From an uncultured Gammaproteobacteria bacterium (GTDB lineage Bacteria > Patescibacteriota > Microgenomatia > Woykebacterales > RBG-16-39-9b): a DNA stretch of 64,000 bases. Position numbers and translations under genes: made by a program. The stretch is from contig CAYGGA010000001.1 of the NCBI GenBank assembly GCA_964349395.1, positions 65,991-129,990 on the forward strand, in the 5' to 3' direction. Shown here piece by piece: positions 670-48,837 of the stretch. Numbering within the stretch: the stretch's first letter is position 1; each line of letters starts with the position of its first letter. The notes under the pieces are model-generated. The model made no database searches. It saw only the letters and a list, made by a program, of their open reading frames with translations, and was not told the DNA's origin.

Positions 670-774
670 TTCTCAGTCGTGAGGTTCGAAAAGGTGGTGT
701 GACTTAAGTTCAGGTCCCAAATCCCTAGACAAGAGTGAACTCTTAATTTATACTCTCTCCCAAGGAGAGACAAA

Positions 775-954
775 ATGAGCCGAGAGGAGTGGTTAGACCA
801 CTTGTTCTTCTGGTTTGGAGCTGCTGGCTTTCTTGTCCTATTTGTTGGCTTAGTGGTAGCCTGGGCAGCCAGTGATGTCCGGTATCTAGTGGGCGTCAGT
901 TTTCCGGGTGGGGTAGCTTGGTACCTAGCAATCCAAAGGTTACTTTATTCTTAG
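775..954 (+). CDS. small 2-TM membrane protein (59 aa), below the track's 60-aa cutoff
   Basis: ATG at 775 preceded by AAGGAGAG. Hydrophobic product MSREEWLDHLFFWFGAAGFLVLFVGLVVAW. Paralogous to the next small ORF (both start MSR.E.W). Confidence 0.4.
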   Translation: MSREEWLDHLFFWFGAAGFLVLFVGLVVAWAASDVRYLVGVSFPGGVAWYLAIQRLLYS

Positions 955-968
955 TAAAGGAGGGTCAG

Positions 969-1151
969 ATGTCCAGGGCCGAACATTGGTTCCCGGCTTT
1001 TTTTGGGTTGGCCACTCTAATCATAGTGACTGGGATGGTGCTGTCGGTTGCCACTTCAGATATTACCTTTTTTGTCTTGGGAGGTTGGGTAGGCGTTGTC
1101 ATATTGGTAACCCTAATCCTGTGGGTACAGCGTTCTTTAAAAAGGGAATGA
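969..1151 (+). CDS. small 2-TM membrane protein (60 aa), tandem paralog of 775..954
   Basis: Track ORF 918..1151. The internal ATG at 969 is preceded by a strong RBS AAGGAGGG. Product MSRAEHWFPAFFGLATLIIV... is hydrophobic. Confidence 0.45.
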   Translation: MSRAEHWFPAFFGLATLIIVTGMVLSVATSDITFFVLGGWVGVVILVTLILWVQRSLKRE

Positions 1152-1232
1152 ACCCAGTAGAATTTCAAGCCGTAGGCTAAAAACTTACGGCTTTCTCTTG
1201 TTATATAGGCTATTTTCTGGTAAAATCCACTG

Positions 1233-1994
1233 GTGGAAAATTTGGATTGGCAACTAGAAGACAAAGTTTATATTATCACTGGCAGCGGTGGGGGTATTGG
1301 GTTGGCTATTGCCCTCTTTTTGGTAGCGTGCGGGGCCAAAGTGGTGATCAATGACAAGACCCACTCAAAAGTCCAAGCAGCACTTAAGCAAATCAAAAGC
1401 CTAGGTGGAGAGGGGATAGGGGTAACTGGCAATATTGGGGACAAAATCACCGTTGATCAGATCGTCAAAGACACCCTCCGTCATTTTGGCAGAATCGATG
1501 GTTTGGTAAACAATGTCGGGGTTGGACCAAGGTCAGATTTCCCCAATCTAAGTTCTAAAGATTGGCAAGAAACACTCGATATCAATCTCAATCAGCCCTT
1601 TCAACTTACCCAAAAAGCAGTGCTCCAGATGCAAAAACAAGGAAGTGGGGGAGCAATTATTTTTATATCATCAACTCACACCACTTTCCTGGGAGCCAAC
1701 ACCGCCTATTCTGCTTCCAAGGCAGCAGTTGAACTTCTGGTGAAAGAGCTAGCCCTGAGGTTGGCCAAAGATAAAATCCGGGTAAATAGTGTGGCCCCAG
1801 GAGCAATCCTCAGCCACCCAAAGCTCAGTCCCCATGATTCTCACGTACCTCTGGGCAAGAAAAGGGGGGAACTGACTGATGTTGCCAAGTCGGTGGCCTT
1901 TTTATTGAGCCCTTCCCTGTCAGGGTACACTACTGGTATAATTTTAAGAGTAGACGGCGGTCTGTCCCTAACTAACCCAGTTTCCAAATATTAA
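1233..1994 (+). CDS. short-chain dehydrogenase/reductase (SDR, FabG-like oxidoreductase)
   Basis: TGSGGGIGLAIA Rossmann motif, YSASK catalytic Y-x3-K, 253 aa. Confidence 0.85.
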   Translation: MENLDWQLEDKVYIITGSGGGIGLAIALFLVACGAKVVINDKTHSKVQAALKQIKSLGGEGIGVTGNIGDKITVDQIVKDTLRHFGRIDGLVNNVGVGPRSDFPNLSSKDWQETLDINLNQPFQLTQKAVLQMQKQGSGGAIIFISSTHTTFLGANTAYSASKAAVELLVKELALRLAKDKIRVNSVAPGAILSHPKLSPHDSHVPLGKKRGELTDVAKSVAFLLSPSLSGYTTGIILRVDGGLSLTNPVSKY

Positions 1995-3232
1995 TGATTC
2001 GAACAACTAAAACCATCATCGGCACGGTTTTTCCGGCCCTTACAGTTAGAAATTACCAATTATATTTTACTGGTCAGAGTATTTCTCTGATTGGTTTTTG
2101 GCTCCAACAAGTTGCCCTTGGTTGGTTGATGTTTCAGCTTACTCAGTCCGCTTTTTGGGTTGGGTTGGTAGCTACAGCCTCAGGTTTGCCTTTTTTACTT
2201 TTCTCTACTTTTGCGGGTGTATTTATTGATAGATCTAGTAAAAAGAAGATCCTAATCTGGACCCAGATTTTTGAAGCTCTGATTGCGCTAATTTTAGCTG
2301 TCATGGTGATGACAAATACAATTACTCCAGAAATTGTTTTAGTTTTAGCTTTCTTAACTGGTATCAGTGGATCTTTGGACCTTCCCGCAAGATTCTCTTT
2401 TATTATTGAAATGGTTGGTAAAGGTTATCTAGGCTCAGCGGTATCTATAAACGTGGCGGTTTTCAATGGTGCTCGGTTCGTGGGCCCAGCTTTAGCGGGA
2501 ATACTGATTGCTAGTTTTGGGGTAGGGTGGGCATTTTTACTAAATGCAATTAGCTACTTACCAGGAATTTTGGCAGTTTTGGCCATAAAACCAGTTGAAA
2601 CTCCGGAAAAAACTATTGACCTGCACCCCTGGGAATCATACAAGGAAGGACTTAGATATGCTTTTACCCACGCTCAACTCAGGGTTTTGATGCTTTTAGC
2701 GAGCACCATGGCAATTTTTATCTGGCCTTACACGACACTCATGACCATCATTGCGGAAGTGACCTTTAAAAGTGGGCCATCAGGTTTGGGTAGTTTGCTA
2801 GCCGCCACTGGTTTGGGGAGTTTGTTTGGGGCGATCTTAACTTCAGCAATTTTAGATAAAGTTTCCAGGGTCAAGATGGTATTTGGAGGACTATTTTTAG
2901 GAACTACCAGTTTGTTACTTTTTGCTCTTACCACTAATTTTATTTTTGCCCATATTTTATTATTTCTAGCTGGCTTTGGTATCATAGCTATTGCTTCTAG
3001 CCAGAACACTTTGATGCAGCAGCTCAGCCCACCGCAAATGCGGGGGAGAATCAACTCTGTTTATTTGACTGCCTTTGTGGGCATGATGCCAGTGGGAAAT
3101 GCTTTGGGTGGCTACCTGGCGGACAAAATCTCAGCTCAGTTTAGTATTGGCTTAGGGGCAATAGCCACTTTTCTTTTAGGTCTCTATTTATACGTTAGTC
3201 ACCGAGATAAATTTAGAGATGGAGCTGACTAG
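1994..3232 (+). CDS. MFS transporter
   Basis: 412 aa, about 12 predicted TM segments, MFS-like G-rich loops. Start overlaps the SDR stop (ATGA). Confidence 0.8.
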   Translation: MIRTTKTIIGTVFPALTVRNYQLYFTGQSISLIGFWLQQVALGWLMFQLTQSAFWVGLVATASGLPFLLFSTFAGVFIDRSSKKKILIWTQIFEALIALILAVMVMTNTITPEIVLVLAFLTGISGSLDLPARFSFIIEMVGKGYLGSAVSINVAVFNGARFVGPALAGILIASFGVGWAFLLNAISYLPGILAVLAIKPVETPEKTIDLHPWESYKEGLRYAFTHAQLRVLMLLASTMAIFIWPYTTLMTIIAEVTFKSGPSGLGSLLAATGLGSLFGAILTSAILDKVSRVKMVFGGLFLGTTSLLLFALTTNFIFAHILLFLAGFGIIAIASSQNTLMQQLSPPQMRGRINSVYLTAFVGMMPVGNALGGYLADKISAQFSIGLGAIATFLLGLYLYVSHRDKFRDGAD

Positions 3233-3265
3233 GTTACGAGGTGACCAAGCCAGCTCCATATGGAC

Positions 3266-4153
3266 TTAAACAGAAACGAGGACCCTCTCTTTTTTCTCCG
3301 CTTCCTCTTGTTTAAGCCTGTGTAGGTAGTAGCCCGCCATTTCTTTACGCCCAAAATCGTAGTGAAGGCGAGCCCGAAGCAACCCCAACTCATCCGCGCT
3401 CTCGATATCAGCGCATCGTCTTGGTTCACCAACGATGATAGTCAGAGGATACCAAAACCGTGGTATACCCAAGAAACACTTCTTGAGGAGTCCATTGCCC
3501 GGCTCTTGTGGCGGAAGAATCCTCTCTGTTCCTTCCAGAGCAATCGGTGTCAACCAATCCCCATTCTTGACGAGCAAGATTGCGTTTGGAGCCGGGGCGC
3601 ACTCGATCACGCCACTGCGCTGCCGAGTGCCGTGAGCCGAAAACCAGAGTAGCTTGCCCAGAGCGAGCTGCTCAATGAGCAGGTCAATGGAGATTTGTAC
3701 CTCGCGAGTAATAGCCTCATTACGTGTGTTTACCCGCTCCCGCCTGCCTGCATATGTTTCTCCGACCCGTAGTTTGGGTATCTTCTTGGCCTCAGAGGGT
3801 GGAAAGATATAGCCTCGATCTGCAGTTTTGATGAGCGGTCGTTCTGCCCATCGGTAACCGATCAAGAAGAACATCTTCCTAGTCAAACTTGGGAAACCGT
3901 GCCACCACATGAAAATTAGCGGCAAGGGAATATCCATTGAGCTGAAATGGTCGAAATCCAAGAGAATCTTCGCACCCTGCGAGCGCAGTTCCTGAGTTCT
4001 CTTGAGGTTGGGCTTGCCGATGATCCTGACTCTCCAGATGAAAAAGAGTCCCAGAAAAAGTAGGGCACTCTTCCCCACATACCAAAAGACCCGATGTCCC
4101 GGGCGGTAGCCCAGAGGGACATGCTCAAACCCTTCGATTTTGCTGTACTCCAA
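3266..4153 (-). CDS. hypothetical protein with N-terminal TM segment, GC-enriched relative to neighbours
   Basis: 295 aa ORF. I recognise no family motif. GC by eye is about 50% versus about 40% flanks. Tail-to-tail with the MFS gene. Confidence 0.4.
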   Translation of the reverse strand: MEYSKIEGFEHVPLGYRPGHRVFWYVGKSALLFLGLFFIWRVRIIGKPNLKRTQELRSQGAKILLDFDHFSSMDIPLPLIFMWWHGFPSLTRKMFFLIGYRWAERPLIKTADRGYIFPPSEAKKIPKLRVGETYAGRRERVNTRNEAITREVQISIDLLIEQLALGKLLWFSAHGTRQRSGVIECAPAPNAILLVKNGDWLTPIALEGTERILPPQEPGNGLLKKCFLGIPRFWYPLTIIVGEPRRCADIESADELGLLRARLHYDFGRKEMAGYYLHRLKQEEAEKKERVLVSV

Positions 4154-4184
4154 GACACTCCCTCCAGGATTTATTAGGAAAATT

Positions 4185-4207
4185 ATATTGCGTTAAGCAA
4201 TAGTTGT
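4185..4207. promoter_or_regulatory. operator-like palindrome TATTGC-N5-GCAATA (copy A) upstream of ORF 3266..4153
   Basis: atATTGCGTTAAGCAATAgttgt. Perfect 6-bp inverted arms. A near-identical copy lies 108 bp away. Confidence 0.3.
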
Positions 4208-4292
4208 CTATCGACACCTGTGAAAAATCTAAATTCGCAATTATCTGCGGATATAATCCTAAGAGGATTAATGAGCAACCAAGTTTGCGAAT

Positions 4293-4315
4293 ATATTGCG
4301 TTTAGCAATAGTTGT
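4293..4315. promoter_or_regulatory. operator-like palindrome TATTGC-N5-GCAATA (copy B)
   Basis: atATTGCGTTTAGCAATAgttgt, 22/23 identical to copy A. Abuts the atpC stop. Confidence 0.3.
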
Positions 4316-4319
4316 AGTC

Positions 4320-6946
<2,627 letters not shown>

Positions 6947-6957
<11 letters not shown>

Positions 6958-8464
6958 TTTTACCCTCCAAGAAATGGTCAGTAAATTCGGCCGTTATTTT
7001 TTCCAACTGAGAGGAGAGTTCGTCGGTTAATTTATTTTCTTTTAAAATACTGTCTAGTAGTTTTTGGTGGCGAGTAGTCAGAAAATCTAAATACTTAGTT
7101 TCATAATCCTTGATATCCTCCACTGGCACTTTATCCAAAAACCCTTTGGTCACGGCAAAAATAATGGCAATCTGGCTTTCTACGCTCAGGGGTGAAAACT
7201 GAGGTTGTTTCAAAACCTCTACCACTCTTTTTCCTCTCTCCAGTCTGCTTGAAGTCTCAGGGTCCAAGTCAGAGCCAAACTGGGCAAAAGCCGCGAGTTC
7301 TCGAAATTGAGATAAATCCAATCTGAGGGTACCAGCAACCTTGCGCATAGCTGCAATTTGAGCACTACCACCGACTCGCGAGACGGAGACACCGACATTG
7401 ACCGCAGGTCTGATACCGCTGTAAAACAAGTCACTTTCCAGGAAAATCTGACCATCGGTGATAGAAATCACGTTGGTGGGGATATAGGCCGAAACATCCC
7501 CGGCCTGAGTTTCAATGATCGGTAGGGCTGTTAAAGACCCACCACCATTGGCTTTATTGAGCTTAGCACTTCTTTCAAGGAGCCGCGAGTGAAGATAAAA
7601 GACGTCCCCTGGGTAAGCCTCTCGTCCGGATGGTCGTCTCAAAAGCAAGGAAATTTGGCGGTAAGCCCAGGCATGTTTACTCAAATCATCATAGACTACC
7701 AGCGCATCTTTCCCAGAATCCATAAAGTACTCCCCAAGGGCGGTTCCTGAGTAGGGAGCAATATACTGCATGGAGGCAGAATCAGAGGCGGGGGCGGCCA
7801 CCACTACCGTGTGATCCATGGCCCCGTTCTTTTCCAAAATAGCGACTACTTGAGCAATCTTGGAAGTTTTCTGGCCAATAGCAACGTAAATACACAAAAC
7901 TCCCTTACCTTTTTGGTTGATAATGGCGTCAATTGTTAGTGCTGTTTTACCCAAACCACGATCCCCAATGATTAGTTCCCTTTGTCCTCTCCCAATTGGG
8001 ATCATGGCATCAATACTCTTAATACCTGTCTGCAAGGCCGTATCCACAGACTCGCGGCTGATGACTCCAGGAGCAATCTTTTCCACTGGGTACTGGTCTC
8101 TTGCCTTGATAGGCCCCTTGCCATCAAGTGGATTTCCTAAGCTGTCCACCACTCGGCCAAGCATGGCTTCGCCCACCGGCACTTCCAAGGTTCTACCGGT
8201 CGCGCGAGCCTCGTCCCCTTCTTTTAGGAGTTTATAGTCGCCAAAGATAATGATTCCGACCTGGTAATCTTGTAGATTTAAAGCTAGACCAGTCAAACCA
8301 TGGGGTAGAGAAACAATTTCCCCGTAAGAAAGTTCTGATAAGCCCGAGACAGTAGCAATACCATCACTAACTTCAGAGATAGTGCCGACATTACTTTTTT
8401 GCGCCCCCAAACTCAGGCTGGCAATTTCTTTTTTTAATGAATCTAAAATATCAGTGTCAGACAT
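6947..8464 (-). CDS. atpA: F1 ATP synthase alpha subunit
   Basis: 505 aa, P-loop GDRGLGKT, alpha-subunit signature. Confidence 0.95.
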
Positions 8465-8853
8465 TAATGCAAGTTCCTTATTGTCTCCAGTTTAGCTTTA
8501 AAAGAGTTCTCATACACCATATCCGCAATTTTGACTTTCAAACCAGCGATCAAGTGAGGGTTCACTAAAAATCTAATCTGGGTAACTTGAGGAAATTTAC
8601 TTCTTATTTCTCGTTCGGTGCTGTTGGCCCAGACCTTGTCTGGGGAGAAAGGAGTCTCCACGTACGCTGTCTCGGACTCTATTTTTAGCTCAATTAAGTT
8701 TAAATAACTTTGGTAGATCTCTAAAAGCCTTTGGGGCTGCATTTCCTTCAAACTATCAATTACTAGTTTGACTTTTTTAGGATCAACTCTGTCTTCAGAT
8801 AAACTCTTTTTGAATAATTTTCTTGCAAACATCTCAATTTGTCTGTTTTTCAT
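8464..8853 (-). CDS. atpH: ATP synthase delta (OSCP) subunit, short form
   Basis: 129 aa ORF between atpF and atpA. Assigned by operon position. Weak sequence conservation. Confidence 0.65.
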
Positions 8854-29548: not shown

Positions 29549-30058
29549 ATGATATACTACCAGGCAGATTTTTCAGGAGGCAGATCGTTGAAGATCAAGC
29601 TCAGTCGGAGAGACATTGAGGGTGTTATCCCACATCGCCGACACGCCCAATTTCTAGATTGGGCGGTAGTGGACACAGATAGTGGAGAGGTGACGGCTGC
29701 CTTTCGGGCGAGGAAATGGATGTGCGACGGCCACATGGACATCCTTCCTGGACATTTCATGGCGGAAGGGGTAAATCTGGCGATCGCCATAGCCGCAATG
29801 CATGGCAAGCCACCCAAGACCCAGGTCCTTCTGAGAGAAACTGGTAACGGCAAACTTTACCTGAAAGTCCCGCAAGGAGCACTGGTCACCGTGACTGGTC
29901 GAGTCAATAGCTGTGAAGTGGTGCGGAGGATTTTCCTGCGAGTAATCGCTTCGGGTGAGGCTACGGTGGGAGGCAAAAGGGCATTTACTGTACCGGCCGA
30001 AATCAAAGCCGTGATCGAATTGCCGGAAGAATCAGGCGAGAACAAGGCTGAGGAGTAG
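29549..30058 (+). CDS. hotdog-fold (FabZ/FabA-like) dehydratase, GC-enriched
   Basis: 169 aa. IPHRRHAQFLDWAVVD resembles the FabZ LPHRYPFLLVD motif. GC by eye about 55%. Lies on the 3' side of tRNA-Lys. Confidence 0.55.
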   Translation: MIYYQADFSGGRSLKIKLSRRDIEGVIPHRRHAQFLDWAVVDTDSGEVTAAFRARKWMCDGHMDILPGHFMAEGVNLAIAIAAMHGKPPKTQVLLRETGNGKLYLKVPQGALVTVTGRVNSCEVVRRIFLRVIASGEATVGGKRAFTVPAEIKAVIELPEESGENKAEE

Positions 30059-34464: not shown

Positions 34465-35008
34465 TGCTGCCAGGCCAGCTCTGACTCACTTGGCTGATGA
34501 GCTGACTACTTTGTGTGGTTCACCAGTTTTCTTGTTATTAAATGTAATTTTGTTTGCTAGTTGGATTTTAGTAAACTCGGGGATTTTACCCTTGGTGCCA
34601 GTTTTTGACCCTTTTCCCTTTGGGTTACTGACCATGTTGGTGTCCTTGGAGGCAATTATGCTTGCGATTTTAGTCCTGATTTCCCAAAACCGGTCAGCAT
34701 ACATAAATACCATCCGAGATGAAGTCAATCTCCAAATAAACCTTAAATCAGAAGAAGAAATTACTAAAATCTTGGAAGTATTGAAAGAACTTAGGGAAAA
34801 GCAGGGGATTACTACTCCTGATCCAGAGCTAGATCAAATGATTAAAAGAACTGATGCGGGGTATATCGAACAAGCGATCATCAATCAGCTAGTCAAGGCC
34901 AATGGGCCAGTTGTACACCAACTAATCAAGGAATTTCCAGATATTGTGGCTAAATTTGACCCACTAAAACTAGCTGACCTCCTCAAAATTCCCAAAGAAG
35001 ATAAGTAA
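34409..35008 (+). CDS. DUF1003 membrane protein
   Basis: Track ORF 34349..35008. The likely start is the internal ATG at 34409. Two TM segments plus a coiled-coil C-terminus typical of DUF1003. Confidence 0.55.
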   Translation: MQNTQRRRQFIKSIEAKSIAARPALTHLADELTTLCGSPVFLLLNVILFASWILVNSGILPLVPVFDPFPFGLLTMLVSLEAIMLAILVLISQNRSAYINTIRDEVNLQINLKSEEEITKILEVLKELREKQGITTPDPELDQMIKRTDAGYIEQAIINQLVKANGPVVHQLIKEFPDIVAKFDPLKLADLLKIPKEDK

Positions 35009-35129
35009 CTTAGCTTTATTTTCAACTCGAGAAAACCATAGGTTCAAATTCACAACAAAATAGGACCTATAGCATTGACTTTTAATGATAATTGTGCTAA
35101 TATGTTTTTAATCCAATTGGAGGAAGGTT

Positions 35130-35441
35130 ATGAGTTTGGATCACACCCTCGGTATCGTCAGGCGGTATGAACCTGCGTCCGAGGAGCATCGGTACGCAGT
35201 CATCAGCCGCAACCTCTCTGCCGAGACATACGAGGAGAGCGACCATGTCGTCTTTTCCTCGGGTGATCTGGAGGAGGTAGTCGTTCGTTTCATCCAGGAA
35301 GAATCCTGCCACATGTTCGAAGGTCTGTGGTCGGAAGGCTTCCCTGGAACTGAGACAGCGACGCTCCGTGAACTGCACGTCCTTCGCCTTCGCGAGCTTG
35401 CGGTGTACCACGGATTGGATCCTGAACTGGTCACCTCCTAA
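35130..35441 (+). CDS. hypothetical acidic protein, GC-rich
   Basis: 103 aa. Strong RBS GGAGGAAGG. GC by eye about 58%. Confidence 0.5.
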   Translation: MSLDHTLGIVRRYEPASEEHRYAVISRNLSAETYEESDHVVFSSGDLEEVVVRFIQEESCHMFEGLWSEGFPGTETATLRELHVLRLRELAVYHGLDPELVTS

Positions 35442-35545
35442 CGGGAACAACCAGTCTCAAACTCACCCCTGAGAATAGCAATTCTTGGGGGTGTTTCATT
35501 TTAAAAGCATTAATGTAGTTTTTTATGGTAAAATATGCCTATTGT

Positions 35546-35621
35546 GCGCCCATAGCTCAGTGGATAGAGCAGGACGGTTCTAACGTCAAGGTCGGGGGTT
35601 CGAATCCCTCTGGGCGTACCA
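35546..35621 (+). tRNA. tRNA-Arg(TCT)
   Basis: 76 nt. Acceptor GCGCCCA/TGGGCGT. Anticodon loop GTTCTAA. T-loop GGTTCGAATCC. CCA encoded. Confidence 0.85.
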
Positions 35622-35876
35622 ATAATTTAGGCGGAGAGTTGCTTTTTGCGCGAACAAGTAATATAATGTTTACAGGCTTTTTAGTATTGCCTTTTAGAAT
35701 GGAATATTTTGAAAAGCATTTTTTTTTGCTTACTTATTTGGGGACCACAGTAAGATCGACTCAAGATGAGACGGTTTTACTGTGTTTCCTTTTGAGGGAA
35801 GACAAAATCAAGGAAGGGGCAGTCTAAGGGAAACTATCCTTAACGACTAGAGTTCAGAGAAAGAGAGATCCTCAAC

Positions 35877-36368
35877 TTGTTCAAGAAAGTTATCATCTTG
35901 GGCGCGGTTGCGCTGGTTGCCATGCTCGGCATCGTCGCGACAGTCTCGGCCGCCGGCGGGTTTGACGAGTTCGGCTACAACGACACGGCCCGCATCTTCG
36001 TGGGACCCGCAGACGGCGTCGACGGCGTCATGGACGGAATGGTCTGGGGCGACGCTACCTACGCAAACGACCACCTCGTCATGAAGTGGAACGCGGCCTG
36101 GGATGCCTGCAACGATCTGAACACTCCGGAGGCCTGCGCTGGTGCCTGGATTGACAACGAATGGAACGGAAAAGTTCCCGACGGTAGCGGCGAGACCTGG
36201 CATTACAAGATCGTCTGGATCGGAGCCTGCGGAGCTTACGGAACCCCGACTGGTGACGGTGGCTACTGCATCTGGAATAGCTACGAGATGCTGATGTCCC
36301 AAGGAACTGCGGAGAACGTGCACATCTGGGACGCACACGCTATCCCGAACGGCTACGGCGGTCGATAG
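35877..36368 (+). CDS. secreted Trp/Cys/Gly-rich protein of unknown function, very GC-rich
   Basis: 163 aa. TTG start. Signal peptide MFKKVIILGAVALVAMLGIVATVSAAGG. GC by eye about 60%. An overlapping antisense ORF 35847..36338 is judged spurious. Confidence 0.5.
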   Translation: MFKKVIILGAVALVAMLGIVATVSAAGGFDEFGYNDTARIFVGPADGVDGVMDGMVWGDATYANDHLVMKWNAAWDACNDLNTPEACAGAWIDNEWNGKVPDGSGETWHYKIVWIGACGAYGTPTGDGGYCIWNSYEMLMSQGTAENVHIWDAHAIPNGYGGR

Positions 36369-36465
36369 CGCTTTTCCGGTGCAGGTCTTCTTCAGATAGC
36401 ACCGAGCCCTCTCAGGAAAAACAGTTACATAACCTAACTGGCGCTGTCTGTAATTCCGGAGAGTA

Positions 36466-36545
36466 GATCAACTGTGCTGTGTATTATTAAGTCCTCTTTG
36501 ACCCTAACCGGTACATTGAGAACCTAATATACACAGCACTTTTTT
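36466..36545 (+). terminator. long hairpin (11-bp stem GTGCTGTGTAT/ATACACAGCAC) followed by a T-run
   Basis: Perfect inverted repeat with a 44-nt loop, followed by TTTTTT. Confidence 0.35.
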
Positions 36546-36959
36546 AATATATTTTTCAATAATTTCTCCATCCAAACTACCTTGGGAAACTACTATTTGT
36601 CTTTGCATTAGGAAGTTAAACATCTGCTTTTCCCTTCCTAAAACGGTGTTTTGCTTGGAGCTTTCCTGTATAATAGGTGGTATCGAGCGCTTGGAGTTTC
36701 TTGTAGGTTAGGAGTAAACTATCGAAAATGGTGTTCCACCCAGAGACATCCAGGCGTACCAGTTTAAGCTTAGAACTTTAGTTCTAGGTTTAAACTGGGT
36801 CCAGAGTGTGGTGAACCCCCTCGGGTTCGAGTTGGCGAAGCAAACCAAGAGCTTTAGCTCCGGCATCCCTCTGGGCAACCATCCCACAGTAAAACCCATA
36901 GCCTTGACATCAAACTTTAATTATGATATCCTTCATCTACAAAAATTTGGAGAATTGAG

Positions 36960-37334
36960 ATGTGCGAGATTTACCACGGCGCGGTCTGGGAGATTGACGA
37001 GCCAATGAAGAGGGGCTACATCCTGGGTGACGACGGGCAAATGCACGCCTTTTCTCTGGTTGGCTACCGGAGCCTGAGGATCACCAAGAAGGATGGGTTG
37101 CGGTTTGTGGACAAGCCACCTATGAACACGCCGAAATACAAGCTTTGGGTGCACATGAACTTGAAGACTGGAGATCGGGTGGTCTACCAGAAGGCAAGGA
37201 TTCCTGGGCTCAACCACCACATGCCCGACTCTTACAACGCTTTTCCCTGGGTTTTGGAGTCTGTTTACAGCACACACGTTAGGCACGCGGCCAAACGGGG
37301 GATCGCCAACCAATTGCAACCTGTTCCGGTTTGA
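36960..37334 (+). CDS. hypothetical protein, GC-enriched
   Basis: 124 aa. No recognisable motif. GC by eye about 55%. Confidence 0.45.
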   Translation: MCEIYHGAVWEIDEPMKRGYILGDDGQMHAFSLVGYRSLRITKKDGLRFVDKPPMNTPKYKLWVHMNLKTGDRVVYQKARIPGLNHHMPDSYNAFPWVLESVYSTHVRHAAKRGIANQLQPVPV

Positions 37335-37377
37335 CCTACGACCGAACGCCTTTGAGTACACCACTCGGAGGCGGTTT

Positions 37378-39771
37378 TTATGCAGAAATAATTGGCTCTA
37401 CTATAGATTCCGTGGAATCAGTGAAAGTAGTCCCCTTGGCACTAATCAGAGGTTTGATGAGAGCTACCTTTAGAACTTCATCAATGTGTTCGACAAAGTA
37501 AAATTTCAGGTCTTTTAGAGTCTTCTGCGGGATTTCCTCAAGATCTTTTTCATTTCCTTTTGGCAAGATCAGTGTAGTTAGCCCCGCTCGGTGAGCTGCC
37601 AAAACTTTTTCTTTCACCCCACCAATATCTAAGACTTTACCTCTCAGAGTGATCTCACCGGTCATGGCTACTTCTTTCCGCACGGGGATTCGAGAAATCA
37701 TGGAAATGATGCTAGTGGCCATAGTGATACCAGCACTAGGCCCATCCTTTGGAATCGCCCCGGAGGGGACATGAATATGCACATCTTTATTTTTGTAGAA
37801 ATTTTCTGGGATCCCAATCTCACTCGCTTTGCTTCGTGCGTAGGAAAAAGCCGCAGTCGCACTTTCTTTCATAACATCCCCTAAAGATCCAGTCAAAATC
37901 AAAGTTCCTTTCCCAGGCATACTGGTTGATTCCACCCCCAGGACTTCCCCACCAGCCTCTGTCCAGGCTAGACCAGTAGCTACGCCAACTTCATCCTTTT
38001 TCTCTGCCAGCCACGGGCGGAATTTTTCTGGACCTAAATAAGTTTTCAAATCTTTTTCCGTAAGGGATGCTTTTTTGATGTTTTCTTCAGCCACCAGGCG
38101 GGCAATTTTTCTCGAAATAGTGGCAATTTCTCTTTCTAGATTTCTGACCCCGGCTTCACGAGTGTACTTGGTAATGACTGTAGAAAGGGCTTTATTCTCA
38201 ATCGTGAGCTGATCTTTCTTGAGCCCATGGTTTTCAATCTGCTTTGGCAAAAGATAATCAGTGGCGATATGAAATTTCTCTTCCTCGGTGTACCCAGGAA
38301 ATTCAATGATTTCCATACGGTCTCGCAGAGCCGGCGGGATAGTATCCAAATTGTTGGCGGTGGTGATAAACATCACGTCACTTAAGTCAAAAGGAACTTC
38401 TAGATAATGATCCGAGAACGCAAAATTTTGCTCTGGATCCAAAGCTTCTAGCAGGGCGGAAGAAGGGTCCCCTCTAAAGTCGTAACCTAATTTATCAATT
38501 TCGTCCAAAATAAAGACCGGGTTTTTGGTACCTGCATCTTTTACTCCTTGGATGATCCTTCCGGGCAAGGCTCCGACGTAGGTGCGGCGGTGCCCCCTGA
38601 TCTCAGCTTCATCTCGTATGCCACCCAAGGAAACTTTTACAAACTCCCGGTTTAAAGCCTTAGCAATCGATCTAGCAATCGAAGTCTTACCCACCCCTGG
38701 AGGACCAAAAAAGAGAATAATTGGGCCCTTCATTTTACCAGTGAGTTTTTTGACCGCTAAGTATTCTAAAATTCTTTCCTTAACTTTTTTCAAGCCGTAA
38801 TGGTCTTGGTTTAAAACCTTTTCCGCCTGCTTGACATCAATTTTTTCTTCACTTTTCTTTTTCCAAGGCAAAGCAACCAGCGTATCTAAATAAGTGCGGA
38901 TATAGGAGACCTCAGGGCTCATCGATGGCATTTTTTTGAGTCGATCTAACTCCTTAAGAGCCTTGGTCTGGATCTCTTCTGGCATCCCCGCAGTACGGAT
39001 CCCTTTTTCTAATTCCTGGAATTCTTCCTGTTCTTCTTTGATTCCCAATTCTTTTTCAATTGTTTTGAGTTCTTCCCGCAGAAAAGCTTCTTTGGCGCTT
39101 TTGCCGAGCTCTTCGGCGGTCTTATCTTGGATTTTGCGCGCGGTTTGGAAAACACTGAGTTCACGAGAGAGATAACTAGTTACCATATCCAGTCTTTTCT
39201 TAAAACTATCTGCTTCCAGAAGATCCTGCTTTTCTTGCGATTTCAAATCTAAATTGACGACCAATGTGTCTAGTACTCGCAGCGGATTAGAGAAGTCAAA
39301 AACAGCCGAAATTGTGTCTAGAGCCACTGATTTACCCATGGATATAAGTTGTCTAAATTGCTCAACGGCCGCGCGAAGAGTCTCTTCAATCTCTGGATCA
39401 GAGACATAAGTTTCGGGGAGTTCTTCGAGATTTACTTCAAAATAAACTTGGTTTTTGGCGAAAGATTTGATTTTGGCTCTAGTTTCGCCTTCAACCATGA
39501 TATTGATGACGCCATCTGGAAGTCTTTGGACTTGGTTGATCTTGGCAATCGTGCCGACACTATAGAGATCTTCTTCTTTTGGATCATCTTGGTCCTTGTC
39601 TTTTTGCATTACCAAAAAGATCTTTTTACTAGACAGCAGAGAAGCTTCTAAAGCCTTCACACTTTTGTCCCTTTTTAAAGAGATTGGTACTAAAGCATAG
39701 GGAAAAATTACAACATCGCGGACTGGAATTAGGGGAAGTGAAACCACATTCATAGAGTCAGACTTTAGCAT
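37378..39771 (-). CDS. lon: ATP-dependent Lon protease
   Basis: 797 aa. Walker [10 protein letters not shown]. Catalytic PKDGPSAG motif. N-terminal LON domain. Confidence 0.95.
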
Positions 39772-41482: not shown

Positions 41483-41830
41483 GTGAGACTGATTCTAAAC
41501 CTTCTGATTGGGACGCTGGGAGTTTGGATTACGGGCAGGGTTTTGCCTGGGGTTCATCTGGACAGCTTGCAGGCAGCACTAATCGTGGCCATCCTACTAG
41601 GAATTGTAAATATTGTGGTTAAACCGATTCTGGTGGTGCTAACTTTGCCGATCACTTTAGTTTCTCTTGGACTATTTCTTTTTGTCATCAATGCGTTGAT
41701 GATTTTACTGGTCGACGTCTTTGTGAGTGGGTTTAGTGTGGACAATTTTTGGTGGGCCTTGCTTTTTAGTCTCGTAGTCTCTGTTGTCACGTCGTTTCTT
41801 AATTCTCTTTCCAAACCTGCAGCCGAGTAA
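41483..41830 (+). CDS. DUF360 / phage-holin-family-4-like 4-TM membrane protein
   Basis: 115 aa. LLIGTLGVWITGRVLPGVHLDSLQAALIVAILLGIVN is the typical DUF360 N-terminus. Confidence 0.6.
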   Translation: MRLILNLLIGTLGVWITGRVLPGVHLDSLQAALIVAILLGIVNIVVKPILVVLTLPITLVSLGLFLFVINALMILLVDVFVSGFSVDNFWWALLFSLVVSVVTSFLNSLSKPAAE

Positions 41831-48399: not shown

Positions 48400-48732
48400 T
48401 CAATCCTCCATCATCCCAAAGACCCGCAGTAGAATCCCCTCCTCGCCTTGGTGTCTGCCCAAAAGTTTCATTGGGGCCTTTCCAGGGTGCTTCCAGGCGA
48501 GCGGGTCGAGGTGTTTACCATCCCCAACGGCAATAACTTGAGCATCGTCTACTACAAGCTCTCTGGCCCGCCTTTCATCTTCGGCAGCAACCAGATAGGT
48601 CAGGACGCCTTCCGCTGGGAAGTCATCAGGATCATAGTTCAGGTCTTCCTATTCCTTTCCAAAGAGTGCATTTACACCGCCAATAATGGCTGCGTAGTCA
48701 CCCGCGGCAGTCAGGCAATAAACTTTCACCAC
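48400..48732 (-). pseudogene. DUF2007-like small protein gene interrupted by an in-frame TAG
   Basis: Manual translation: GTG start, 27 codons, TAG at 48649-48651, then 84 more codons in the same frame (..LVAAEDERRARELV..). Not in the M-start ORF track. Confidence 0.35.
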
Positions 48733-48837
48733 ACCCTACCTCATTGTTTTTTCTTGCTGTATTATACTATTTAATGGGTAACTTACAAGGAAATATGGGA
48801 GTAACTGCTCTACATTTGGCTTAGAGCCTGGATTATT

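Follow-up and report, generated by a model that had tools for sequence, protein, structure and literature searches.

The DNA studied here is a 64,000-nt stretch of contig CAYGGA010000001.1 (hereafter the window), and in particular the interval between a DUF1003 gene, which ends at position 35008, and lon, which ends at position 37378. This interval holds a tRNA-Arg(TCT) gene and three plus-strand open reading frames (ORFs), ORF1, ORF2 and ORF3 (Table 1); GH130, DUF1003, Lon and a histidine kinase are among the neighbours. An initial annotation had described the ORFs as one GC-rich islet flanking the tRNA. The three ORFs are indeed present on either side of the tRNA gene and their composition is foreign, with GC contents of 0.564 (ORF1), 0.604 (ORF2) and 0.544 (ORF3) against a window mean of 0.432. 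The GC content at third codon positions (GC3) reaches 0.654, 0.768 and 0.720, respectively, corresponding to z scores of 5.5, 8.2 and 7.1 relative to 34 long genes of the window (mean 0.418, standard deviation 0.043, maximum 0.527), and the highest 300-bp GC content of the entire 64 kb is found in the ORF2 region (0.643; window standard deviation 0.044). Codon choice is also unlike that of the host, since AGA, TTA and CTA are unused, GAC and AAG are preferred over GAT and AAA, and GAG is favoured. All three ORFs therefore deviate strongly from the rest of the window in both GC and codon usage. The non-coding stretches between them have a host-like GC content of 0.37–0.42, indicating three separate ORF-sized GC spikes and not one continuous block. 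Thus, the GC-rich ORFs of the initial annotation are real, but the single islet resolves into three independent cassettes with host-like spacers, ORF1 and ORF3 not travelling with ORF2. We consider it likely that the interval is a small hotspot for foreign DNA at tRNA-Arg(TCT), with separate self-contained cassettes and with ORF2 coming from a high-GC donor. The host is probably a Levybacteria-like member of the Patescibacteria with ~43% GC.

A word-seeded search with ORF2 returned 735 proteins, the best 120 being 54–100% identical; all are annotated as hypothetical and none has a Pfam domain. An exhaustive profile search matched 309 clusters (50% identity level), of which 154 had E ≤ 1e-10; single-domain proteins of 150–200 residues make up nearly all of the 309. 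In 185,579 genomes, one per species, the family was found at 199 loci with ~50–75% identity. Among bacteria of the Candidate Phyla Radiation (CPR), the hosts are Levy-, Woese-, Roizman-, Kaiser- and Jorgensenbacteria, Saccharibacteria and Paceibacterota, and among archaea they are Nanoarchaeota, Woesearchaeota, Bathyarchaeota and one Methanosarcinales metagenome-assembled genome (MAG). Other hosts are Anaerolineae and further Chloroflexota, Acidobacteriota, Gemmatimonadota, Caldisericota, Ignavibacteriales, Spirochaetota, Actinomycetota and Atribacterota, and one locus lies on a cultured Atrimonadaceae chromosome. A neighbour-joining distance tree mixes phyla and domains, the Levybacteria copies falling into at least four separate clades with other phyla and archaea. 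Given this scatter and the low number of loci, ORF2 is not a conserved core protein of its lineage, a result that the initial annotation had named as one that would refute it. The window copy groups with that of locus L012 (Levyibacteriota), next with an Anaerolineae copy, and then with a GC-rich Saccharibacteria/Paceibacterota clade that includes Gemmatimonadota; Anaerolineae and Gemmatimonadota thus provide its closest non-CPR relatives. No neighbouring gene family is common to more than 6 of 82 loci, and the lack of a conserved genomic context points to a function as an autonomous single gene. No member was found in IMG/VR viral contigs, nor by tblastn in phage and plasmid records, so that carriage by phages was rejected as far as such a test reaches. 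Together, these data suggest that horizontal transfer of single genes has spread the family between CPR bacteria, DPANN archaea and many phyla of high GC content. Domain fusions gave no functional clue, as longer members are few and none has a Pfam match. Some of the proteins P0127, P0138, P0156 and P0236 carry an unannotated ~100-aa beta domain, inserted in or N-terminal to the ORF2-type domain, and one of these four has two tandem ORF2-type domains. At one further locus, in a Patescibacteria MAG (L047:4877-4952, plus strand), the tRNA that ARAGORN reports just upstream of the ORF2 homolog has a four-base anticodon (ctta).

For 80 loci of the family, the GC content of the gene was compared with that of its flanks, and the two are correlated (r = 0.80, slope 0.54). 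The gene lies more than 5 points above its flanks at 37 of these loci, and up to 24.5 points at L015, where GC3 is 0.88. Almost all of these hosts have ~30–50% GC, and in high-GC hosts the difference between gene and flank is ~0. At L012, L014, L015, L016 and L087 the excess takes the form of a ~500–600-bp spike limited to the gene. Copies with a GC3 of only 0.22–0.29 occur in the low-GC hosts L013 (0.25), L059, L069 (0.22), L071 and L028, indicating that the protein can be encoded without GC-rich codons. Most simply, the gene would have passed repeatedly from high-GC into low-GC lineages and then ameliorated. ORF2 would in that case owe its high GC content to a high-GC donor, from which it entered the Levybacteria lineage, and to an amelioration that is still partial. 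The window and L012 have in common ORF2 (77.5% nucleotide identity), its -10 box and a long leader. Since promoter, leader and gene are shared at a synonymous divergence (dS) of 0.84, the acquisition would be old and precede the split from the L012 lineage.

As to their own organisation, ORF1 and ORF3 each appear to form a cassette with a host-style promoter, a Shine-Dalgarno sequence, an ATG start and an intrinsic terminator (Table 1), and public gene calls also place both on the plus strand. The motif ATAGCNTTGAC precedes both promoters and has 12 matches in the window, compared with 3.5 expected. It corresponds to ATAG(C/T)NTTGAC, an extended -35 region whose 12 window sites include 29540, 35069, 36898, 46145, 47076 and 57766, and which is probably a promoter feature of the host organism. 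A search of 5.8 billion proteins, which reached word-sharing relatives, returned only the self match for ORF1 and ORF3. ORF1 had no significant match in Pfam, NCBIfam, PHROG, PADLOC, PDB or plasmids (phages were not searched for it), and ORF3 had none in the same collections or in phages. The AlphaFold2 model of ORF3 from the single sequence was unusable, with a predicted local distance difference test score (pLDDT) of 50.6.

The ORF2 cassette would comprise its own promoter, a structured leader of ~200 nt, a TTG start and a long hairpin terminator. The putative promoter was read from the sequence and from alignments; it was not listed by the promoter scan because its -35 box fits at only three of six positions. 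Its -10 box and the downstream sequence are kept in L012 and in L031/L005, L031 (CAYGIG010000039.1) being a paralogous or allelic locus that has the same leader and signal-peptide coding sequence, followed by a different mature domain (59% identity). The leader copies of the window (35739-35846), L031 (4003-4152) and L012 (4822-5006) were aligned, and RNAalifold predicted from these three sequences 37 pairs, 7 of which show compensatory changes. A 74-nt part of the leader (35773-35846) is 100% identical to that of L031, though the coding sequences are only 59% identical, a pattern that would imply either gene conversion or a leader under strong constraint. A riboswitch was considered and rejected: the leader has no Rfam match, and a covariance model built from it finds only its three source loci, all of Levybacteria type, indicating that the leader is lineage-specific and not family-wide. 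At the 3' side, the long hairpin noted by the initial annotation at 36466-36545 is real; the predicted folding energy of the 121-nt region is -36 kcal/mol (z = -4.7 versus shuffles), and the stem, followed by six T residues, is likely the ORF2 terminator. An antisense ORF (35847-36338), which, as the real gene, would have refuted the initial annotation, is a shadow ORF, as it is the plus frame that has the homologs, the GC3 maximum and, relative to the L012 ortholog, a ratio of non-synonymous to synonymous divergence (dN/dS) of 0.19.

The attention given earlier to the tRNA neighbourhood proved justified. Genomic islands and islets linked to tRNA genes arise by integrase-mediated insertion at the 3' end of the tRNA gene, and repetition of the tRNA 3' end at the distal border, as in such islands, is also seen at tRNA-Arg(TCT), with short repeats of 9 nt and of 12+4 nt that lie 1.1 and 1.25 kb downstream of the gene. 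The shorter one is GGCGTACCA; the core of the longer, ATCCCTCTGGGC, is matched perfectly at three places in the window (0.00 expected), and two of these places lie within tRNA-Arg genes. Between ORF2 and these repeats lies the start of a gene for a PLD-like nuclease. By BLAST, window 36602-36759 is 83% identical to positions 8496-8653 of L092, where the gene is intact (8035-8517, 160 aa, PF13091 match). As only ~7 of its codons are left here, the ORF2 unit to its left has replaced most of it. The two partial tRNA copies and the truncated gene would thus be recombination scars downstream of the tRNA.

Next to this remnant is a 75-nt element, H1, which resembles tRNA-Arg in beginning with GCGC, ending with GGCGTACCA and having a 7-bp acceptor-like stem, without a cloverleaf. 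Copies occur at L008:103-177 (87% identity) and L092:8581-8655 (83%), and in other contigs H1 is always divergent from the PLD-like nuclease gene. H1 was rejected as a tRNA or tmRNA, as ARAGORN was negative even at relaxed settings and the three copies show no compensatory pairs. Rfam covariance models run over 35000-37500 gave only tRNAs at the gathering score and nothing credible at E values up to 5, so that the leader and the 590-nt spacer match no known RNA family. The ORF-poor spacer (36676-36885, plus strand) folds at -89.6 kcal/mol (z = -6.1) and contains a near-perfect 18-bp hairpin at 36759-36798; only its H1 part is conserved in L092. The latter is a contig from groundwater, and its region L092:3885-9087 combines genes for a conjugative ATPase (TraG/AAA_10), an M23 peptidase and the PLD-like nuclease with H1, a GIY-YIG gene and a tRNA-Lys, possibly representing an integrative or conjugative element of Patescibacteria.

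Comparison with related strains suggests that the ORF2 unit can have other left flanks, the junctions falling precisely on these short repeats or inside the leader. In L008, an 87%-identical H1 is connected, exactly at GGCGTACCA, to the window sequence from 35622 onward (99.9% identity). In L005, the left part is 100% of L031 type, with two ~425-aa secreted proteins, the right part is 99.8% of window type, and the switch lies inside the shared 74-nt leader; L005 is either a recombinant or an assembly chimera. L005 and L008 thus differ in their left flank, with the reservation on L005 just given, and no empty site was present among the variants found. At L031, which lies in the same or a sister population, the two ~425-aa secreted proteins (686-3432) have no Pfam domains, an ORF2-family gene is found at 4147-4617, and a GC-rich secreted ORF at 4994-5530 on the minus strand. 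We infer from the repeats and the variants that the tRNA-Arg interval is a recombination hotspot, and it may also be what is left of an element that integrated at the tRNA; either uptake followed by recombination or such an element, before its decay, probably brought in the DNA.

Table 1. Features of the interval between DUF1003 and lon (window coordinates).
Feature	Position	Strand	Description
ORF1 promoter	35075-35103	+	Sigma-70-like, TTGACT-17-TAATAT, TG before -10; motif ATAGCATTGAC just upstream; promoter scan
ORF1	35130-35441	+	103 aa, ORFan; GGAGG 7 nt before ATG
ORF1 intrinsic terminator	35464-35503	+	13-bp stem and T-run
tRNA-Arg(TCT)	35546-35621	+	Encoded CCA; last 9 and 12+ nt repeated downstream
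Putative ORF2 promoter	35639-35667	+	TTGCTT-17-TATAAT
ORF2 leader hairpin	35739-35791	+	Long, ~20-bp hairpin (RNAalifold)
ORF2	35877-36368	+	163 aa; TTG start, conserved in L012 and L031
ORF2 terminator hairpin	36474-36545	+	Stem 36474-36539, then TTTTTT at 36540-45
PLD-like nuclease remnant	36602-36624	-	First ~7 codons and upstream region (BLAST)
H1 element	36687-36761	+	75-nt tRNA-sized hairpin; TATAAT box at 36669-36674 upstream; last 9 nt are repeat a
Direct repeat a	36753-36761	+	GGCGTACCA, the last 9 nt of tRNA-Arg (35613); 0.13 expected
Direct repeat b	36865-36881	+	ATCCCTCTGGGC (36865-36876) and AACCA; 3' strand of T-stem/acceptor of tRNA-Arg (35604)
ORF3 promoter	36904-36932	+	Sigma-70-like, TTGACA-17-, TG; motif ATAGCCTTGAC just upstream
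ORF3	36960-37334	+	124 aa, ORFan; GGAG 8 nt before ATG
ORF3 intrinsic terminator	37347-37380	+	Abuts the lon stop codon (lon 37378-39771, -)

An alternative that overlaps with the hotspot, and differs from it mainly in assuming one event and not several, is that the whole interval is the decayed remnant of a single element integrated at tRNA-Arg, which has lost its integrase and of which ORF2, the PLD-like gene, H1 and perhaps ORF3 were cargo. The two direct tRNA copies downstream, the company of the PLD-like gene and H1 in L092 and the exact junction of L008, which looks like that of a circle or a tandem, all speak for such an element, as does a tRNA within ~600 bp of the ORF2 homolog at 6 of 31 CPR loci. 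The tRNA is a different one each time, however, and ORF2 homologs elsewhere are single-gene spikes near different tRNAs or near none. In addition, the left arm of L008 is only 87% identical to the window, hence its junction does not derive from the window strain. Like tRNA-linked islands, the interval shows tRNA adjacency, downstream direct repeats of the tRNA 3' end, foreign composition and a left flank that seems to vary between strains; unlike them, it has no integrase, its repeats are very short, it totals only ~1.2–2.3 kb, and ORF1 lies on the other side of the tRNA. Moreover, each ORF has its own host-type promoter, and such native-looking promoters argue for long residence. We therefore regard a single decayed element as possible, though rather doubtful.

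Several points also weigh against a hotspot of foreign cassettes as such. No integrase, transposase or other mobility gene was detected by Pfam in or next to the interval, and ORF1, upstream of the tRNA, is outside any attL/attR-like interval. A chimera across the shared 74-nt leader is conceivable for L005. ORF1 and ORF3 have no homologs, so that their foreign origin is read from composition alone, and their expression would follow from the predicted signals only. Finally, the three Levybacteria-type copies of ORF2 keep a GC3 of ~0.7 (0.69–0.77) despite a dS of 0.84–1.14, and this retention could be due to selection.

The last point leads to the possibility that ORF2 is a long-resident native gene, in which a high GC3 is maintained by selection on mRNA stability, structure or translation. 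Such residence would agree with the promoter, leader and coding sequence held in common with L012 at ~77% nucleotide identity. Furthermore, amino-acid composition alone raises the GC content of the family by ~0.03–0.10 above that of the flanks, even in ameliorated copies. On the other hand, the same protein is encoded at a GC3 of 0.22–0.29 in the other low-GC hosts listed above, no long gene of the window exceeds a GC3 of 0.53, and the tree mixes phyla and domains. The retained values also fit a partial decay to 0.7–0.77 from a donor at ~0.85–0.98, an estimate made with no fitted model. A native origin is therefore improbable, and selection for high GC3 is a weaker alternative to transfer followed by amelioration, which we continue to prefer.

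Turning to the protein itself, the clear signal peptide reported by the initial annotation for the 163-aa product was confirmed by inspection: residues 1–25 form a typical Sec n-h-c signal with MFKK, a 19-residue hydrophobic core and an AXA-type site (VSA/A). It is conserved across the family, some homologs having a lipobox instead (LVAC, VVAC). ORF2 is thus predicted to encode a Sec-exported, single-domain protein of ~14.5 kDa. The mature part (138 residues) starts at a conserved GFDxxGYN motif, includes the stretch ADGVDxxLDG, and contains 9 W, 7 Y, 22 G, 13 D and 4 C. Among 174 members, the residues conserved at 90% or more are G33, Y34, N35, A38, F41, G43, G58, D65, M69, K70, W71, W75, A90, W91, N94, N97, G98, G103, K111, W114, G128 and W133. 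The mature part is therefore W/G/D-rich, as had been stated, but cysteine is not a family trait: all four cysteines are present in 43 members, only the second pair in 54, only the first pair in 42, and none in 26, with odd patterns in 9. As the cysteines vary in pairs, they would form two independent, dispensable disulfides (C78-C87 and C118-C131), and the disulfide pattern is not conserved as a set.

The AlphaFold2 model of ORF2, based on an alignment of 57 sequences, has a mean pLDDT of 86.9 (~95 over the mature domain) and predicts a mainly beta domain with short helices. A PDB profile search of the sequence gave no match, and comparison of the model with solved structures gave no structural neighbour, including no known toxin fold and no known fold of lectins or carbohydrate-binding modules (CBM). 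The predicted fold is thus one without a detectable solved relative. The earlier statement that the product matches nothing holds for Pfam, NCBIfam, PHROG, PADLOC and PDB, but there are more than 700 close homologs in two domains of life. For the three ORFs, the PHROG search gave two matches at E values of 0.05–0.2, below significance, and PADLOC gave none.

The initial annotation had also suggested that ORF2 could be a secreted toxin or a bacteriocin-like effector, and ORF1 or ORF3 might then be an immunity or accessory protein. A small, secreted, patchily distributed and horizontally mobile protein, encoded between two small genes of unknown function, would be in line with such a role. ORF1 and ORF3 are nevertheless found nowhere else, not even beside the closest ORF2 homologs, which leaves an immunity or partner role unsupported; no other partner gene is conserved in 80 loci either, and each of the three ORFs has its own transcription unit. 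Taken together with the absence of a significant PADLOC or PHROG match or of a known toxin fold, and with an identity of 50–75% across domains and a dN/dS of 0.19, both atypical for effectors in an arms race, this makes a toxin very unlikely. It is scarcely credible, finally, that the ORFs are an artefact of mis-assembly, of GC-rich contamination or of non-coding GC-rich DNA that stays open by chance, even if such DNA does open ORFs on both strands, as the shadow ORFs illustrate, and ORF1 and ORF3 lack homologs, because the junctions are 100% identical in the independent assemblies L004, L006 and L007, which indicates that there is no assembly chimera, because hundreds of homologs under purifying selection already refute an artefact for ORF2, and because ORF1 and ORF3 are each framed precisely by promoter, Shine-Dalgarno sequence, ATG and terminator.

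Rather than a toxin or adhesin engaged in an arms race, we tentatively propose that the ORF2 protein may be a stable module that binds an invariant ligand outside the cell, such as a glycan, an envelope component or a metal ion, in view of its very high conservation across domains, its autonomy as a single gene, its predicted export, its invariant Trp, Tyr, Asn and Asp residues and the ADGVDxxLDG stretch. The invariant Y34, N35, W71, W75, W91, N94, N97, W114 and W133 are compatible with glycan binding, without being diagnostic of it, and a lectin-like role, also named in the initial annotation, is possible. It should be noted that ORF2 matches no known CBM or lectin sequence family or fold.

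In groundwater Patescibacteria, single-gene transfers and small genomic islands have been documented, and DNA uptake or competence was proposed as their route (PMC12455944). As in these cases, a streamlined CPR genome carries here compositionally deviant single genes, with donors in and outside Patescibacteria, including archaea. Unlike them, the unit can be dissected into promoter, leader and gene, its family recurs as a 500-bp GC spike in many hosts, and two of the three genes are without detectable relatives. The islet is thus a clear example of documented single-gene transfer in Patescibacteria, and horizontally gained small genes near a tRNA are ordinary. Less ordinary is the ORF2 family: it lacks annotation, keeps a high identity from one domain to the other and moves as a lone gene, and its confident model has no solved structural neighbour. 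It resembles the FESNov-type secreted families of microbial dark matter (PMC10849945) in having no Pfam or NCBIfam model, in being known from metagenomes, and in its conservation under purifying selection. In contrast to these families, it is not lineage-specific but crosses bacteria and archaea at 50–75% identity, with no conserved context.

The family is common to CPR bacteria, DPANN archaea and many other anaerobes, and one may speculate, with little confidence, that it represents an extracellular, autonomously spreading, cross-domain factor of new fold with a shared surface- or ligand-binding function in symbiont consortia. If so, surface-attached ultra-small symbionts (CPR, DPANN) and their likely high-GC neighbours or hosts would carry it particularly often. 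GC-rich copies, and the GC-rich ORFans next to ORF2, would in that case stem from DNA of a host or partner and could serve to infer the host of a symbiont. As a natural label, the recurrent single-gene GC spike cleanly traces the flow of genes into ultra-small symbionts, and could help to identify donors or hosts. With 138 residues and 0–2 disulfides, the protein is also tractable for structural and binding studies.

Elsewhere in the window, further ORFs without a Pfam domain have a raised GC3 of 0.56–0.66 (3266-4153, minus strand; 29549-30058 and 48448-48774, both plus strand), and similar foreign or orphan genes may be present elsewhere in the genome. An ORF of 100 aa overlapping tRNA-Arg (35525-35827, plus strand) is annotated publicly in an identical contig (L004, 6629-6931) and is almost certainly spurious. 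Lastly, a PF04020 superfamily IV holin-like protein (41483-41830, plus strand) adjoins a trehalose-phosphate synthase/phosphatase fusion and has no relation to the islet.

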